From: an uncultured Candidatus Saccharibacteria bacterium
Lineage (GTDB): Bacteria > Patescibacteriota > Doudnabacteria > UBA920
Direction: 5' to 3'
NCBI GenBank assembly: GCA_964483665.1
Contig: CAZACP010000002.1
Span: 33,171 to 97,170 of the forward strand
Length of the DNA: 64,000 nucleotides
The position numbers and the translations under genes are program-made. The notes under the pieces are model-generated. The model ran no database searches, was not told where the DNA came from, and saw only the letters and a list, made by a program, of their open reading frames with translations. Position 1 is the first letter of the stretch. The number at the start of each line of letters is the position of its first letter. Below are positions 5,870 through 41,825 of the stretch, one piece after another.

Positions 5870-7513
5870 ATGAAAAAAAGTGTTAACCATAAACAAATAT
5901 TTGCCATCATTCCTGCGGCTGGCAAGCCGAGTAATTTAATTATCCAACACTCGACCTTACCTGACACAATGTTGCCTATTAACGGCAAGCCAGTAATAGG
6001 TTATATTTTGGAGGATTTGTTAAGTAGGGGGATAAAAAATGCGGTTATTGCTTTGCATCCTGCGGATTCTCATACCCAAAAGTATGTTGAGCAAAAGTTT
6101 ACAGATAAAATGGGAATTAAGTTTATAAGAACTAATCCCGACAGGGGAGTGGGAAATTCAATTTATCTTGCCAGTAAGTTAGTCGAAAAAAATAATAGAA
6201 TTTTATTGTATTTGGGAGATACAATTTATAAAGGAAAATTAAATTTTGGTAATGATTTTTTAGTGTTTTCCAACCGATATGAAAATCCTGAAAAATGGTG
6301 TTTTATTGAAAAACACCACAACAGAAATTTTCTTTTTATCAATAAACCCGCAGAATATAAGTTAGGAGGCAAGGTTTTGTGCGGTGTTTATTATTTTAAA
6401 GATTATAAGAATTTTATTTTAGCAACTAACCGGGCAGTAAACAAAAATAAAAAAGTTGAAATTAGCCATATTTTAGAAGCTTATCAAAAATTTCATAAAT
6501 TTGATTTAATAAGTGCTAATCGTTGGTATGATTGTGGAAATATTGAAAATTACTATCAAGCCAAAGTTGATTTTTTACGGACAAGAAGTTTTAATCGGCT
6601 TAGTTATAATCCGCAATTCGGAATTATCACAAAAACTGGGACAAATATTCAAAAAATTAACCAGGAAATAAACTGGTATTTAAATACTCCCGACCCGCTA
6701 AAAATATTCTCACCAAGGTTATTTGACTACAAAATTGGGAAAAAAATGTCTTATTACAGTATTGAATATTACGGGTATCCGACCTTAGCTGACATTCATA
6801 TGTTTGCGTACATTAACCAATCTGTTTGGCAGTCAATTATTAACCGCTTGCTCGAAATCACAGAGCTTTTTAAAGGTTATCCAAATCATTTACCTAGAAG
6901 TTATTTTTCCGATATGTACGAAAAAAAAGTAGTCTTGCGATTAAATGATTTACAAAAACATTTTTATTGGAAAAAGGTTTTAAATAGGTCGACAATAAGC
7001 ATAAATGGGGTTGAACACAAAAATATAAGCTATTTTTTAAACAAGTTTGAAGAAATGACCGGCTTATTGTATGAAAAAAAAGATATGAGTTTTATTCATG
7101 GTGACTTTTGTATGGGAAACATATTGTATGATGTAAATAGCAAACTGCTCAAATTTTTAGACCCTCGCGGTTATTTTGGTAAAATGTCAATTTACGGAGA
7201 TATTAAATATGATATAGCAAAATTACGTCACAGTTTTTGTAGTTTTTACGATTTTATTGTTGCTGATTTATTTAAAATCATAGAGCCAGCGGAAGGTCAA
7301 TATTTTTACAATGTATATATTGATGATTATCACAGATTAATTGCTAATAAATTTGACGAGGTGCTTATAAAAAAAGGTTATAATTTAAAATTAATAAAAT
7401 ATGTGGAAGCTTTATTGTTTCTTTCGATGGCTTCTTTGCATTCAAATAGCTTGAGCCGTCAAAAAGCTATGTATGTTACGGGAATTAGACTTTTAAATGA
7501 GACATTTAAATAA
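5870..7513 (+). CDS. Bifunctional sugar-1-phosphate nucleotidyltransferase / APH-family anomeric sugar kinase (MurU-AmgK- or LicC-LicA-like fusion)
   Basis: The N-terminus IIPAAGKPSNL...LPINGKPVIGYILEDL shows an NTP-transferase fold. The C-terminus IHGDFCMGNILYD...LDPRG is a phosphotransferase-family (APH/choline kinase) catalytic motif. Confidence 0.6.
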   Translation: MKKSVNHKQIFAIIPAAGKPSNLIIQHSTLPDTMLPINGKPVIGYILEDLLSRGIKNAVIALHPADSHTQKYVEQKFTDKMGIKFIRTNPDRGVGNSIYLASKLVEKNNRILLYLGDTIYKGKLNFGNDFLVFSNRYENPEKWCFIEKHHNRNFLFINKPAEYKLGGKVLCGVYYFKDYKNFILATNRAVNKNKKVEISHILEAYQKFHKFDLISANRWYDCGNIENYYQAKVDFLRTRSFNRLSYNPQFGIITKTGTNIQKINQEINWYLNTPDPLKIFSPRLFDYKIGKKMSYYSIEYYGYPTLADIHMFAYINQSVWQSIINRLLEITELFKGYPNHLPRSYFSDMYEKKVVLRLNDLQKHFYWKKVLNRSTISINGVEHKNISYFLNKFEEMTGLLYEKKDMSFIHGDFCMGNILYDVNSKLLKFLDPRGYFGKMSIYGDIKYDIAKLRHSFCSFYDFIVADLFKIIEPAEGQYFYNVYIDDYHRLIANKFDEVLIKKGYNLKLIKYVEALLFLSMASLHSNSLSRQKAMYVTGIRLLNETFK

Positions 7514-7517
7514 TTTT

Positions 7518-8588
7518 ATGAGAATAATGTTAGATTTAGATGGGGTGATTTGCGAAATCCGAAAAGAAGGCCAAGATTATGATCAGGTCAGGGTAAATGA
7601 GGGAGCAATTGAAAAAATTAAGGAGTTAAAAGCAGCAGGCCATTATATTATTTTGCAGACCGCAAGACATATGAAGACCTGTAAGGGAGATCAGGGTCAA
7701 GTCGTGGCAAAAATTGGCAAAAAAACTTTGGATTGGTTGGAAAGGAATACTATTTTATATGATGAAATTTATTTTGGAAAACCGCACGCGGAAGTATATA
7801 TAGACGATTTGGCGTACGAGTTTAGAGGATGGGACAATATTTTACCTGATAATTTTGATTCAAATAAAGTCAACATACTAATTCCGATGGCGGGCGCTGG
7901 CTTGCGTTTTAAGCAAAAAGGTTTTGTCGATCCGAAGCCATTAATAAAGACAAAAGGTAAAACATTGGTAGAGTGGGCAGTTAGGTCCTTCCATTTTTTA
8001 AACAAGATAAAAACTTACCGTCTAATTTTTATTGTTTTAGATGAACATGTTAAAAAATTTCGGATCGATAAGCAGCTAAAAGAATTATTTGGAAATGAAA
8101 CTGTTGTTATAACGCAATTTGGCTTGCTTTCGGGTCAGGCCAAATCAAGCTATTTGGCAAAAGAATACATTGATAACTTTAACAAATTATTTATATTTAA
8201 CTGTGATACTTATTCGGAAAGTGCGATTTGGGAATTGATTGAAAAAGAAGACCCGGACGGAATTTTAGAAGTTTTTGAATCAAGCGAGCCTCGGTATAGT
8301 TTTGTAAAGTTAGATGAATTTGGTTACGTTACTCAGACTGCTGAAAAAGTGACAATTTCAAATTTAGCTTCAACCGGTATGTATTATTTTAAAAGGGGTA
8401 CAGATTTTGTTCGAGCAGCCGAGGCTCTTTTTATGCGACAAGAAACCCAAAATAACGAGTTTTATATAATACCTTGTTATAACGAAATGTTAAAATCTGG
8501 TAAAAAAATCAGGGCTGTGAAAGCTCTAAAAAATTATATACTTGGAACCCCCGAGGAATTAAAGGCTTTCGAAAAAAATAAGGAATAA
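7518..8588 (+). CDS. HAD-superfamily hydrolase fused to a nucleotidyltransferase domain
   Basis: The N-terminus MLDLDGVICE is HAD motif I (DxDG). The C-terminus ILIPMAGAGLRFKQKGFVDPKPL is a GT-A-like NTP-transferase glycine loop. The first non-overlapping ATG was chosen (the track starts at 7497). Confidence 0.55.
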   Translation: MRIMLDLDGVICEIRKEGQDYDQVRVNEGAIEKIKELKAAGHYIILQTARHMKTCKGDQGQVVAKIGKKTLDWLERNTILYDEIYFGKPHAEVYIDDLAYEFRGWDNILPDNFDSNKVNILIPMAGAGLRFKQKGFVDPKPLIKTKGKTLVEWAVRSFHFLNKIKTYRLIFIVLDEHVKKFRIDKQLKELFGNETVVITQFGLLSGQAKSSYLAKEYIDNFNKLFIFNCDTYSESAIWELIEKEDPDGILEVFESSEPRYSFVKLDEFGYVTQTAEKVTISNLASTGMYYFKRGTDFVRAAEALFMRQETQNNEFYIIPCYNEMLKSGKKIRAVKALKNYILGTPEELKAFEKNKE

Positions 8589-39838: not shown

Positions 39839-40135
39839 ATGTCTAATATTTCTATAGGTATAAAAAATTTTACGGCCAAAATATTGTCTATAAAAAATAA
39901 TTTTTCAATATTTTTTTACATTGGTTTGGCCATACTACTTTTTTTTGAATTTTTAGTTTTGCAAGATTTGCTGAAAGTTATTCTTGAATCCGCCAAGGAC
40001 CAGTTACCCAGCCATTCGGTGCAGAGAGTAAGAATTAATTTTGCCGATTACGATCAAAATTTAAAAAAAGTTGAAGACGCCCAGAATTTTGAGGCAGACA
40101 TAAGTCCGCCCCAAAACCCTTTTAAGAGCAAATAA
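39839..40135 (+). CDS. Small membrane protein, last gene of the pilus operon (hypothetical)
   Basis: 98 aa with one TM segment. Confidence 0.3.
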   Translation: MSNISIGIKNFTAKILSIKNNFSIFFYIGLAILLFFEFLVLQDLLKVILESAKDQLPSHSVQRVRINFADYDQNLKKVEDAQNFEADISPPQNPFKSK

Positions 40136-40158
40136 AGCTACAGAATGTACAGTTAAAT

Positions 40159-40210
40159 ACACTACAGATGCCTACAGAACAAGGAGTTTTGGGGGTCATT
40201 TGTAGTTTTT
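40159..40210. repeat. Third copy of the CTACAGATGCCTACAGAA motif with a degenerate partner TCATTTGTAGTTTTT
   Basis: acactacagatgcctacagaac lies at 40159-40180. The partial arm lies at 40197-40210. Confidence 0.55.
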
Positions 40211-40302
40211 AAATTGTGGACATTTGGCCATGTTTTCCAGTATAATATAATACAACCCTGAACCCGTAGCTCATTTGGATACCCGCTCGACCCTTACAAC
40301 TA

Positions 40303-40379
40303 GGCTCCGTAGCTCATTTGGATAGAGCGCCTGGCTTCGAACCAGGAGGTAGTAGGTTCAAATCCTACCGGAGTCACCA
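40303..40379 (+). tRNA. tRNA-Arg (anticodon UCG)
   Basis: Manual cloverleaf. Acceptor ggctccg/cggagtc (one G-U pair). D-arm gctc-atttggata-gagc. Anticodon stem cctgg/ccagg with loop cttcgaa. T-arm gtagg-ttcaaat-cctac. Discriminator A and an encoded CCA. Confidence 0.75.
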
Positions 40380-40403
40380 CGAATCATTTTTGCGAGTCAG
40401 GCG

Positions 40404-40500
40404 GGTGGGAAGCGCCTGGCTTCGAACCAGGAGGTAGTAGAGCCTGTCCTGAGCGAAGTCGAAGGATTCGAATTCTACCGGGTGCGCCATTGAAAAATAT
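40404..40500 (+). other. tRNA-derived fragment / pseudo-tRNA
   Basis: A 28-nt exact copy of the tRNA-Arg anticodon arm (40413-40440) sits in a context that does not fold as a cloverleaf. A second 18-nt copy of the D-arm lies at 40264-40281, just 5' of the tRNA. Confidence 0.5.
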
Positions 40501-40558
40501 AGCTAACTAATGTAAACTGTCATAGTGTCTAAAAATATGCTCCCTTAATAAGGGAACC

Positions 40559-40636
40559 CCAAAAATTAGGAGCGCACACAATCTACTTTTTCTAGCCTTA
40601 AAAAAGTAGATTGGGGAGCACGGATTTTTGGGGAGA
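40559..40636 (+). ncRNA. Candidate structured RNA element (nested hairpin), unclassified
   Basis: ccccaaaaat...aatctacttttt-ctagcctta-aaaaagtagatt...atttttgggg. Outer and inner perfect stems enclose GC-rich internal loops. Two more hairpins follow at 40655-40700. Confidence 0.3.
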
Positions 40637-40705
40637 GGAGCAATTGCGAAGGGTATGAGTTTTGGTCTAAAGACCAAAACGTAAGCCCGAAGCAAATTGC
40701 GACGT

Positions 40706-40781
40706 GGATCGGTAGCTCAGTTGGTAGAGCAGCGGACTCTTAATCCGCTTGTCGTGGGTTCGATCCCCACCCGATCCACCA
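40706..40781 (+). tRNA. tRNA-Lys (anticodon CUU)
   Basis: Acceptor ggatcgg/ccgatcc. D-arm gctc-agttggta-gagc. Anticodon stem gcgga/tccgc with loop ctcttaa. T-arm gtggg-ttcgatc-cccac. An A followed by CCA is encoded. Confidence 0.85.
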
Positions 40782-40815
40782 AAACAGCTTAAATTTGAGC
40801 TGTTTTTTAAATGGT
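40782..40815 (+). terminator. Rho-independent terminator after tRNA-Lys
   Basis: Hairpin aacagct/agctgtt followed by a T-run. Confidence 0.55.
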
Positions 40816-40832
40816 GGTACTATTAGCTGGCT

Positions 40833-41825
40833 ATGTTGTATTTATATTTAGGGGCGGATGATTTTACGAAAAAACAGAAAATTGACTCTTTGGTTAAAGA
40901 AAAAAGGGCGGAGTTAGTCGTGTTTGGAGAGGGCGATGAAACACCAAAAGTTCAGGATTTAATAGCAACAGATTTATTCTCAAAGCCAAAGGTTTTTGTT
41001 CTTAGTCTCCCTCCCCCTTTGGGGGAGGGTAAGGGAGAGGGTGTATTGATTATTGACAAATTAATATTATCTTCCAACCACATAGTTATTTCAACTATTT
41101 CTTTAGACAAGCGAAAAAAAGAAAACAAGGATATATTGCTAAACAAAAAAATAATAGTAAAGGAATTTATTTTGCCTCACGGCCAAGAGCTTGATAAATG
41201 GATTTTAGAAAGAGTCTTGTTGCTTGGCGGAAAAATGTCAAAAGACGCGGCAAACCAATTGGCCGTGCGGTTAGGCCGGGACGAAGCAAAAGAAACTAAA
41301 TTTGGCGGTAAAGTGGTAAGCACCGAAGAAGTTTTTAGCTTATGGCAAGCGGACAGTGAAATTAAGAAATTAATAGCTTATTCAGGCGGACGAGAAATAA
41401 CAAAAGAAGATGTAATAGAATTAGTTTCGGAAAATGGGGAGGTCGATGCTCTGCAAATAACTAACGCTCTTGCGGACAAGAACAAGGAACTCTCATTTTT
41501 GCTAATACAAAAGTTTTTAAAAGAACAAACGGCAAGCGACGAAAAAGGCAGCATAATTCAACTAAACGCGCTACTTTCTGAGCAGTTTAGGAACGTGGCA
41601 ATCACGCAGGATTTTGCAAATAGAAAAACAAATGAGGCGGAAATTTTGGAAAAAACCGGGTGGAAAAGCGGAAGGCTTTTTGTAATGAAGAAAATTTCCG
41701 ACAGATTCGACCAGGCTAAAGTAGTGGAAACTTTAAGCAAATTAGCCAGTTTAGACGAGGAAATTAAGACTTCCCAAATGCCGCCAAGAGTGCTGCTCGA
41801 GCTTATTTTGGGGCAATTGTTTTAG
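40833..41825 (+). CDS. holA: DNA polymerase III delta subunit-like protein
   Basis: The N-terminus LYLYLGADDF matches the delta-subunit opening pattern, and the length is about 330 aa. The gene contains an in-frame GC-rich palindromic insert at 41027-41063. Confidence 0.45.
   Translation: MLYLYLGADDFTKKQKIDSLVKEKRAELVVFGEGDETPKVQDLIATDLFSKPKVFVLSLPPPLGEGKGEGVLIIDKLILSSNHIVISTISLDKRKKENKDILLNKKIIVKEFILPHGQELDKWILERVLLLGGKMSKDAANQLAVRLGRDEAKETKFGGKVVSTEEVFSLWQADSEIKKLIAYSGGREITKEDVIELVSENGEVDALQITNALADKNKELSFLLIQKFLKEQTASDEKGSIIQLNALLSEQFRNVAITQDFANRKTNEAEILEKTGWKSGRLFVMKKISDRFDQAKVVETLSKLASLDEEIKTSQMPPRVLLELILGQLF
41027..41063. repeat. GC-rich palindromic element (copy 1) inside the holA-like CDS
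   Basis: ccctccccc-ttt-gggggaggg followed by taagggagagggtg. It encodes LPPPLGEGKGEG in-frame. Confidence 0.65.

Follow-up and report, generated by a model that had tools for sequence, protein, structure and literature searches.

We describe a nested pair of arginine transfer RNA (tRNA) genes in a 64,000-nt stretch of bacterial DNA, hereafter the window, whose numbering we use throughout; all features lie on the + strand, and the loci compared with it carry L-numbers. The window has pilB/C/M/N/O upstream of the tRNA locus and holA downstream, and its nearest named relatives are metagenome-assembled genomes (MAGs) of Candidatus Doudnabacteria. At this locus the D-loop of one tRNA-Arg(UCG), the two acceptor strands of which are complementary to each other, encloses another tRNA-Arg(UCG) that is complete. 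We consider it probable, though well short of certain, that the two form a nested pair within one transcription unit, in which the inner gene is the working one and the outer gene is, in this species, a decaying and dispensable paralogue.

The outer gene, a tRNA-Arg(UCG) made up of 40260-40281 and 40406-40489, is split twice (Table 1), and the fragments upstream and downstream of the inner gene are, to judge from their sequence, the 5' and 3' parts of this one further gene. The D-loop insert of 124 nt (40282-40405) consists of a 10-nt arm, an 11-nt leader, the complete tRNA-Arg, a 16-nt trailer and a complementary arm; the 25-nt insert in the T arm has a sequence with no second occurrence in the window. 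With the two inserts deleted in silico, what is left is recognised by ARAGORN as a tRNA-Arg(tcg) of 77 nt. The outer acceptor strands GAACCCG and CGGGTGC (40479-40485) form six of seven pairs, and all seven with the GCACCCG of L082 and L084, whereas both are poor partners for the strands of the inner acceptor, GGCTCCG/CGGAGTC. Compared with the inner tRNA, three pairs have changed on both sides (3:70 from C-G to A-U, 4:69 from U-A to C-G and 53:61 from G-C to A-U). An earlier note, made from the sequence alone, had read the fragments as traces of an event at a tRNA gene. They do mark the disruption of one, and the compensatory changes in the acceptor and T stems, which the note did not mention, belong to a single split tRNA-Arg gene.

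ARAGORN and Rfam together call two genes at the locus, tRNA-Arg(TCG) at 40303-40379 and tRNA-Lys(CTT) at 40706-40781. The inner tRNA-Arg scores as a canonical bacterial tRNA (RF00005, 70.5 bits against a gathering score of 29) and is 96% identical to the plain tRNA-Arg of L029; we infer that it is the functional gene of the nested pair. As encoded, the outer gene does not qualify as a canonical tRNA and has no Rfam match at E<=10. ARAGORN likewise calls no second tRNA in the native sequence, intron mode included.

The partial tRNA copies reported in the earlier note are real. An 18-nt copy from the acceptor/D-arm region, CCGTAGCTCATTTGGATA, occupies 40264-40281, repeats 40307-40324 of the tRNA-Arg and ends 21 nt before the gene. 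The downstream copy of the anticodon arm is also present, as a perfect repeat of 30 nt rather than 28 (40411-40440 repeating 40326-40355 at 100%; it takes in the 3' strand of the D stem, the anticodon arm and the variable region; family D2). Beyond it, the T-loop and the 3' side of the acceptor are repeated in diverged form (40467-40481 versus 40357-40371, 87%; family D5). Start-to-start spacings of the repeats are 43 and 85 nt, and the tRNA itself is all that they bracket. The 18-nt and 30-nt perfect repeats are best read, from their sequence, as gene-conversion tracts between the inner and outer copies.

Related species carry a plain tRNA-Arg at the same site, and the nesting is, among the species compared by sequence, specific to the window species. 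L029, a Doudnabacteria MAG (PilO 63% identical to that of the window, and likewise for the marker proteins below), has a plain tRNA-Arg (GACTCCG...CGGAGTC-A-CCA) with the same 98-aa open reading frame (ORF) and holA, tRNA-Lys on the opposite strand and no island; L030 (PilO 66%) has a GGCTCCG-type tRNA-Arg and lacks the upstream fragment; and L003 (holA 67%) has a plain tRNA-Arg and a tRNA-Lys that lie elsewhere. In the closest other species, L026 (PilO 82%), the homologous tRNA is preceded by a promoter sequence identical to that of the window and reads GCACCCG-TA-GCTC-ATTTGGATA-GAGC..., its D arm uninterrupted, until the contig ends in the T arm. This outer-type GCACCCG is the complement of CGGGTGC and equals the L082/L084 allele; the outer gene would therefore be a genuine paralogue that was later split, and no random scrap.

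The locus is present in at least seven other independent metagenome assemblies of the species (ENA, JGI), at 97.6-99.9% intergenic identity, and we therefore reject an assembly artefact. Among tRNA sequences, five sites are polymorphic, all of them within the outer exons (81 nt) and none in the inner tRNA and tRNA-Lys (153 nt), a distribution with p about 0.005 by our own calculation. The outer copy in the window has further defects: an A2:G71 mismatch (G5:G68 in other strains), a D stem with three of four pairs, and the T-loop insert. Polymorphism, insert and incomplete D stem together point to relaxed constraint on the outer copy in the window species, as far as sequence can indicate it. However, two of the five polymorphic sites are part of a divergent block of haplotype sequence, the end of which is near 40265, and this speaks against relaxed constraint. 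That block (40177-40264 in the window, compared with L020, L082, L084 and L086) holds ~17 differences including a 3-nt deletion; it stops at the outer 5' acceptor, and the sequence downstream through the inner tRNA is identical. The pattern suggests a recombination breakpoint at the nested gene, near 40265.

The arrangement recurs outside the species. A scan of one genome per species (185,579 species genomes) for two Arg-UCG anticodon arms 55-85 nt apart gave relevant loci in three lineages, namely L005 (Paceibacterota), L006 (Saccharibacteria) and L013 (a MAG). A second scan, of metagenome contigs for the motif TGAAGATA plus an anticodon arm, gave two families, one new (L015, L017, L018 and L019) and one that is L006 again (L016). 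The nesting topology thus occurs in at least four lineages besides the window, including two named groups of the candidate phyla radiation (CPR), Paceibacterota and Saccharibacteria. Matches L007, L009, L010 and L014 were discarded as tandem repeats or coding sequence. L008, L011 and L012, from Pseudomonadales, were set aside as a separate phenomenon of truncated upstream copies: in these MAGs an intact tRNA-Arg(UCG) gene is preceded by one to three truncated copies that cover its 5' two-thirds, each copy with a mutated D-loop and followed by a TACAAT/TATAAT-like box (L008, 4060-4230; L011, minus strand, tRNA-Arg at 1010-1086; L012, minus strand, 7457-7533, with copies to about 7750).

The nested loci of the other lineages share one order of parts. 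An outer acceptor 5' strand and D-stem 5' strand are followed by AA(G)CTTG and a helix arm of 13-17 bp that starts from CCC; the complete tRNA-Arg(UCG) comes next, then the complementary arm running to GGG, TGAAGATA and the D-stem 3' strand; and the unit closes with an anticodon arm (UCG), a T arm and an acceptor 3' strand complementary to the 5' strand far upstream. CTTGCCC was part of neither search pattern, and TGAAGATA was not part of the first. In an alignment of six outer genes, 94.1% of cells pair, versus 35-53% with slid partners, and 15 of the 31 pairs change on both sides; none of 500 shuffles reached the observed values. In the insertion helix, four of the first ten pairs change on both sides. 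The inner and outer tRNAs and tRNA-Lys of the window all encode CCA, and in L005, L013 and L015 neither the inner nor the outer tRNA does so.

Standard tools recognize the outer genes of these lineages poorly. The Rfam tRNA model gives their 3' parts 30-33 bits, barely above threshold, and the helix-deleted outer genes of L005, L013, L006 and L015 receive no ARAGORN call, probably owing to D-loops of 13-15 nt. The D-loops of the four other lineages lack G18-G19. Inspected by eye, their junction combines a 3-bp CTT/AAG pairing, a G opposite a 2-nt TG and an AA(G)/ATA internal loop; we recognised no canonical bulge-helix-bulge (3-nt bulge, 4-bp helix, 3-nt bulge) there, nor in the window, whose junction is TA/TG followed by the helix. 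A kink-turn was considered for GGGT-GAA-GA and rejected by inspection, as the strand opposite, beside the helix, is CTT and not GA.

The window resembles these loci in some respects and departs from them in others. It has the G/C-rich arms CCCGCTCGAC and GTCAGGCGGG at the D-loop break, nine of ten positions paired, followed by TG. GGCGGGTG is common to the window, L005 and L015 (GGCGGG then TG, at the same position), and the CCCGC start matches the other nested loci. The junction motifs differ, with ATTTGGATA and TGGGA in the window instead of AA(G)CTTG and TGAAGATA. The architecture is the same; conversion by the inner gene could explain the divergence of the window copy, and an independent origin is possible as well. 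Two short likenesses were seen at the helix base: ACCCG (40281-40286) and CGGGTG (40401-40407) in the window equal parts of the outer acceptor strands, and the L006 arms GCCCCCA and TGGGGG (minus strand, about 4481-4464 and 4387-4371) are identical to its inner-tRNA acceptor strands. A helix base resembling an acceptor stem could be a third, nearly erased tRNA layer, or could reflect mere G/C-rich composition.

We propose that the insert which disrupted the outer gene either introduced or already included a working copy of this very tRNA. Transcription would start at a promoter just 5' of the outer gene, and RNase P and 3' trimming would free the inner tRNA, which would serve as the cell's working tRNA-Arg(UCG). 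Two outer pieces would remain, possibly paired through the acceptor stem, the D stem and the helix. With a working copy inside the insert, the outer gene would be dispensable and free to degenerate; this reading also explains why inside and outside genes always have one anticodon in common. Extra lesions in three of five outer copies (window, L006 and L005) are as expected if outer copies decay. In L006 the 5' acceptor strand has lost 2 nt. In L005 a perfect palindrome of 20 nt, CCTGCCTGCCGGCAGGCAGG, is inserted between positions 9 and 10 of the outer tRNA (minus strand, about 1570-1551).

The following observations weigh against this account. In the outer copy of the window CCA is still encoded and the anticodon arm is perfect, as is the acceptor stem in some strains. 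Its helix arms, spacers and T-loop insert are free of polymorphism while the outer exons hold five such sites, which is odd under neutral decay. The outer stems of L013 and L015 are flawless, and cross-lineage identity is 72-86% for outer copies versus 66-82% for inner ones, a hint that the outer RNA has been under selection over the long term. Shuffled sequences fold as stably as 40255-40495 does (z = -0.43); the case therefore rests on comparison, and the six-gene alignment was made by hand with the proposed structure as its guide. The outer stems could have covaried before the nesting arose, although covariation in the helix cannot be older than it. The contig of L026 stops inside the T arm and could represent an outer-5'/inner-3' recombinant rather than an intact ancestral gene. 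Lastly, the outer exons of the window are 85% identical to their own inner tRNA and 64-70% identical to the outer genes of other lineages, and lack the junction motifs, so that homology with the four-lineage family is not established.

Several of these points suit a functional outer gene, which we regard as possible but clearly less probable than decay. Once the inner tRNA is cut out, its pieces would be held together by the acceptor stem, the D stem and the helix of 10-17 bp and form a two-piece or somehow religated tRNA-Arg-like RNA acting in translation or in another Arg-tRNA-dependent reaction, and the nesting would be a conserved gene architecture. Four lineages share the junction motifs AA(G)CTTG-CCC... 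and ...GGG-TGAAGATA, and the covarying helix pairs, the perfect outer stems of L013 and L015 and the higher cross-lineage conservation of outer than of inner copies fit such a role. Annealing of the pieces is predicted with free-energy changes (ddG) of -14 to -35 kcal/mol. GATA is retained, equivalent to G19-A20-U-A21, and it includes A20, which we take to be a major identity element for arginyl-tRNA synthetase. CCA is encoded in both genes or in neither (both in the window, neither in L005, L013 and L015), and the outer 3' end therefore follows the tRNA convention of each genome.

Against function, the window copy is damaged by the 25-nt T-loop insert, the A2:G71 or G5:G68 mismatch, the three-pair D stem and pair-breaking polymorphisms, and lesions also mark the outer copies of L006 and L005. 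The missing G18-G19 in the four other lineages argues the same way, and contacts with the ribosome would probably be obstructed by a long arm at the tRNA elbow. A tRNA with this anticodon is already provided by the inner gene. Finally, the architecture is rare, having been found in three lineages among the 185,579 species genomes and in two metagenome families.

Another possibility is that the fragments never belonged to one gene and are unrelated by-products of slippage or partial tandem duplication of a single tRNA-Arg. The 18- and 30-nt tracts match the inner tRNA exactly, TACAAC in the leader is duplicated too, and simple upstream partial copies of tRNA-Arg exist in the Pseudomonadales MAGs. 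We nonetheless judge this origin improbable: the acceptor strands of the fragments are complementary to each other and carry compensatory changes relative to the inner tRNA, L026 has an outer-type 5' acceptor on an uninterrupted D arm, and the stretches between the repeats, 40282-40302 and 40380-40410, do not derive from a tRNA and make up an inverted repeat.

Where integrases insert and excise DNA at tRNA genes, they typically leave partial tRNA duplications, and the earlier note had proposed that the fragments are attL/attR-type footprints of such an event; beyond the recombination breakpoint near 40265, at the end of the divergent haplotype block, little speaks for this, and we hold it to be very improbable. 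A Pfam scan of the ten ORFs in 37.3-46.2 kb found PilM, PilN, PilO, holA, EamA, PadR and unknowns, and no integrase. The repeats enclose merely 43-85 nt, bracketing the tRNA and no island, and one of them is a 5' fragment lying upstream, which duplication of an attachment site at the tRNA 3' end does not yield. An island inserted or excised in relatives, which the earlier note suggested looking for, did not appear: L029 has the same neighbours around its plain tRNA-Arg and no extra DNA, and L030 lacks the upstream fragment, neither showing a scar. Elsewhere the nested loci are flanked by unrelated housekeeping genes (trigger factor, AP endonuclease, Nudix, ribosomal protein S7, M50 peptidase and CCA-adding enzyme), with no recombinase. 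When viral contigs were scanned twice for the four lineages' junction motifs, absent from the window copy, no nested arrangement turned up, just coding-sequence or chance matches; a phage or mobile-element origin was likewise rejected. In L006 (4584-6053) the CCA-adding enzyme gene adjoins the nested tRNA divergently, and the tRNAs there do not encode CCA.

Table 1. Features and polymorphic sites of the nested tRNA-Arg locus, in window coordinates.
Feature	Position	Strand	Details
Sigma-70-like promoter	40217..40251	+	overlapping candidates TGGACA-18-TATAAT (11/12 consensus) and TTGGCC-16-TATAAT (10/12)
Outer tRNA-Arg, 5' segment	40260..40281	+	acceptor 5' strand GAACCCG, TA, D-stem 5' strand GCTC, D-loop ATTTGGATA
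D-loop insert helix, 5' arm (CCCGCTCGAC)	40282..40291	+	9/10 complementary to 40396-40405, including one G-U; by inspection
Leader of inner tRNA (CCTTACAACTA)	40292..40302	+	its TACAAC is like the outer-gene leader ATACAACC; repeat family D1
Inner complete tRNA-Arg(UCG)	40303..40379	+	encoded CCA; ARAGORN; RF00005
Trailer of inner tRNA (CGAATCATTTTTGCGA)	40380..40395	+	weak likeness to trailer of L029 plain tRNA-Arg, p about 0.02
D-loop insert helix, 3' arm (GTCAGGCGGG)	40396..40405	+	pairs with 40282-40291
Outer tRNA-Arg, 3' segment, part 1	40406..40441	+	D-loop remnant TGGG, D-stem 3' strand AAGC, G26, CCTGG-CTTCGAA-CCAGG (anticodon TCG), variable AGGTA, T-stem 5' strand GTAGA
25-nt insert	40442..40466	+	T-stem/T-loop junction (position 53/54); excision restores GTAGA-TTCGAAT-TCTAC
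Outer tRNA-Arg, 3' segment, part 2	40467..40489	+	TTCGAAT T-loop, TCTAC T-stem 3' strand, CGGGTGC acceptor, G discriminator, CCA
Small hairpin	40541..40555	+	UCCCUU-AAU-AAGGGA; fold
Long nested hairpin (CCCCAAAAAT / ATTTTTGGGG ends)	40557..40633	+	outer arms 10/10 (I9); inner 40579-40591/40601-40613 13/13 (I3)
Long hairpin	40640..40700	+	fold; 5 nt short of tRNA-Lys
tRNA-Lys(CUU)	40706..40781	+	encoded CCA; ARAGORN, Rfam
Intrinsic-terminator-like hairpin and T-run	40781..40810	+	AAAACAGCTTAAA/TTTGAGCTGTTTT, then TT; inverted-repeat pair I6 and sequence
Polymorphism A/C	40261		tRNA position 2; C restores 2:71 pair
Polymorphism C/G	40264		5:68 pair broken
Polymorphism C/A	40270		in D stem
Polymorphism T/C	40474		53:61 pair broken
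Polymorphism G/A	40486		discriminator base

Between the promoter-like site and the 5' end of the outer tRNA lie 9-14 nt, and tRNA-Lys is followed by a hairpin with a T-run; on this basis we infer one transcription unit, whose single transcript would hold the outer 5' part, the inner tRNA, the outer 3' part, a 210-nt spacer and tRNA-Lys(CUU). A consensus terminator scan did not include that hairpin among its calls. Several copies of CTACAG(A) lie at 40139-40180, downstream of the stop codon of the 98-aa ORF and ahead of the tRNA promoter, and in L026 (3965-4050) the motif is present both direct and inverted (ctacagaa ... ttctgtag). As candidates, these copies may be regulator-binding sites.

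The spacer before tRNA-Lys is strongly structured. The sequence 40493-40705 folds with z = -7.25, a value equalled by none of 200 shuffles, into three hairpins without an Rfam match. The nested perfect hairpin described earlier is there, with a small correction of its coordinates, as are the further hairpins announced before tRNA-Lys (Table 1). The segment is thus structured and probably co-transcribed with the tRNAs, and it may be the small ncRNA (40500-40705) that the earlier note gave as its alternative. No known family claims it: at the gathering threshold and at E<=10, for the window and for 40100-40900, Rfam offered none accounting for the remaining sequence of the locus, the structured region included. 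Sub-threshold matches (Plastid-ycf2 antisense to the tRNAs, tmRNA_permuted, YrlA and snoRNAs) were judged to be chance; the tmRNA_permuted match, beside tRNA-Lys and the sole such match in the window, reaches 21 bits against a gathering score of 47.

The 3' 90 nt of the spacer are kept in L001 (holA 76% identical), where the hairpin at 40640-40700 shows a compensatory change from GCAATT/AATTGC to GTAATT/AATTAC plus one G-C to G-U change. The spacer is not present in L029, whose tRNA-Lys is inverted. Candidate roles for it are a spacer for processing, a small RNA, or a scar left when tRNA-Lys was inverted. Relatives differ in the strand of tRNA-Lys(CUU), it being plus in the window (40706-40806) and L001 and minus in L029 (4070-4145), L003 (1420-1495) and L004 (1-110), with the right-hand breakpoint apparently within the loop of the hairpin after tRNA-Lys. 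An element bounded by CCCCAAAA...TTTTGGGG occurs twice, at 40109-40194 and 40557-40633, both beside the locus, where none is expected by chance; the one at 40109-40194 overlaps the 98-aa ORF at its 3' end. Short-read contigs end within the tRNA-Arg or the hairpin spacer in L026, L028 and L030, start there in L001, L002 and L004, and break there also in L024. Repeats internal to the locus could cause these contig ends, and hence the absence of the region from several MAGs.

The locus can be compared with the disrupted tRNA genes of archaea, namely multi-intron tRNAs whose introns sit at non-canonical positions and the split tRNAs of Nanoarchaeum and Caldivirga. As there, the interruptions fall outside the anticodon loop, in the D and T regions; a gene may have several of them; a G/C-rich helix of flanking sequences joins the parts; and standard finders miss the gene. 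In contrast, the host of the window is bacterial (pilM/N/O, holA and a sigma-70-type promoter), no bulge-helix-bulge is recognised at the window junctions by inspection, the insert holds a whole tRNA of the same anticodon, and any joining of the halves is hypothetical. To our knowledge, no splicing endonuclease is known for these organisms.

Precedents for RNA that works in pieces after removal of an insert at a helix tip, without religation, are bacterial ribosomal RNA intervening sequences and two-piece transfer-messenger RNA. Here the likeness belongs to what a functional outer gene would propose, and the pieces are read from DNA. Integrative elements that target tRNA genes and bring a replacement tRNA part also resemble the locus, in that the insert supplies function and a redundant tRNA fragment remains; they differ in that the locus has no integrase among the ten ORFs scanned and no cargo but the tRNA, which is supplied whole and not as a 3' end and sits in a D-loop within 124 nt.

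The interrupted tRNA genes with group I introns in Patescibacteria and Cyanobacteria (PMC13011429) are similar in being found in the CPR, in lacking annotation and in having an insert transcribed with the tRNA. Those introns average about 257 nt (PMC13011429) and lie in the anticodon loop with a ribozyme core detectable by Rfam, whereas the inserts described here lie in the D-loop (124 nt) and the T-loop (25 nt). We rejected a group I intron for the window because the inserts are in the D-loop and at T 53/54, have no Rfam match and consist largely of another tRNA. A 2014 review found bacterial tRNA genes surprisingly uniform, the sole significant exception being group I/II introns by the anticodon (PMC4033280), and a 2026 survey of tRNA introns in Patescibacteria reported for that phylum just group I introns in the anticodon loop (PMC13011429). 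In the open-access full-text literature we found no description of a tRNA nested in a tRNA, nor of disrupted bacterial tRNA genes other than those with group I introns.

A D-loop split by a tRNA gene of the same anticodon would extend disrupted tRNA genes to Bacteria in a new form, found in at least five lineages with the window included. For annotation, the outer copies are invisible or borderline to ARAGORN and Rfam, and their repeats may add to contig breaks in relatives. For evolution, the proposed history offers a simple route to gene disruption without loss of function, as the insert carries its own replacement, and bears on models for the origin of introns and split tRNAs. If the outer pieces are stable, they would constitute a natural two-piece tRNA-like RNA. 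More tentatively, some CPR bacteria may maintain a conserved nested tRNA, the working copy borne on a long helix from the outer D-loop, that on ordinary processing by RNase P and 3' trimming yields a normal tRNA together with a two-piece, extra-armed tRNA-Arg-like RNA with a function of its own, an outcome we think unlikely but worth stating. If true, Bacteria would gain their first fragmented or split tRNA, and the disrupted tRNA genes a new class, of which the window would hold a diverged or independently formed copy.

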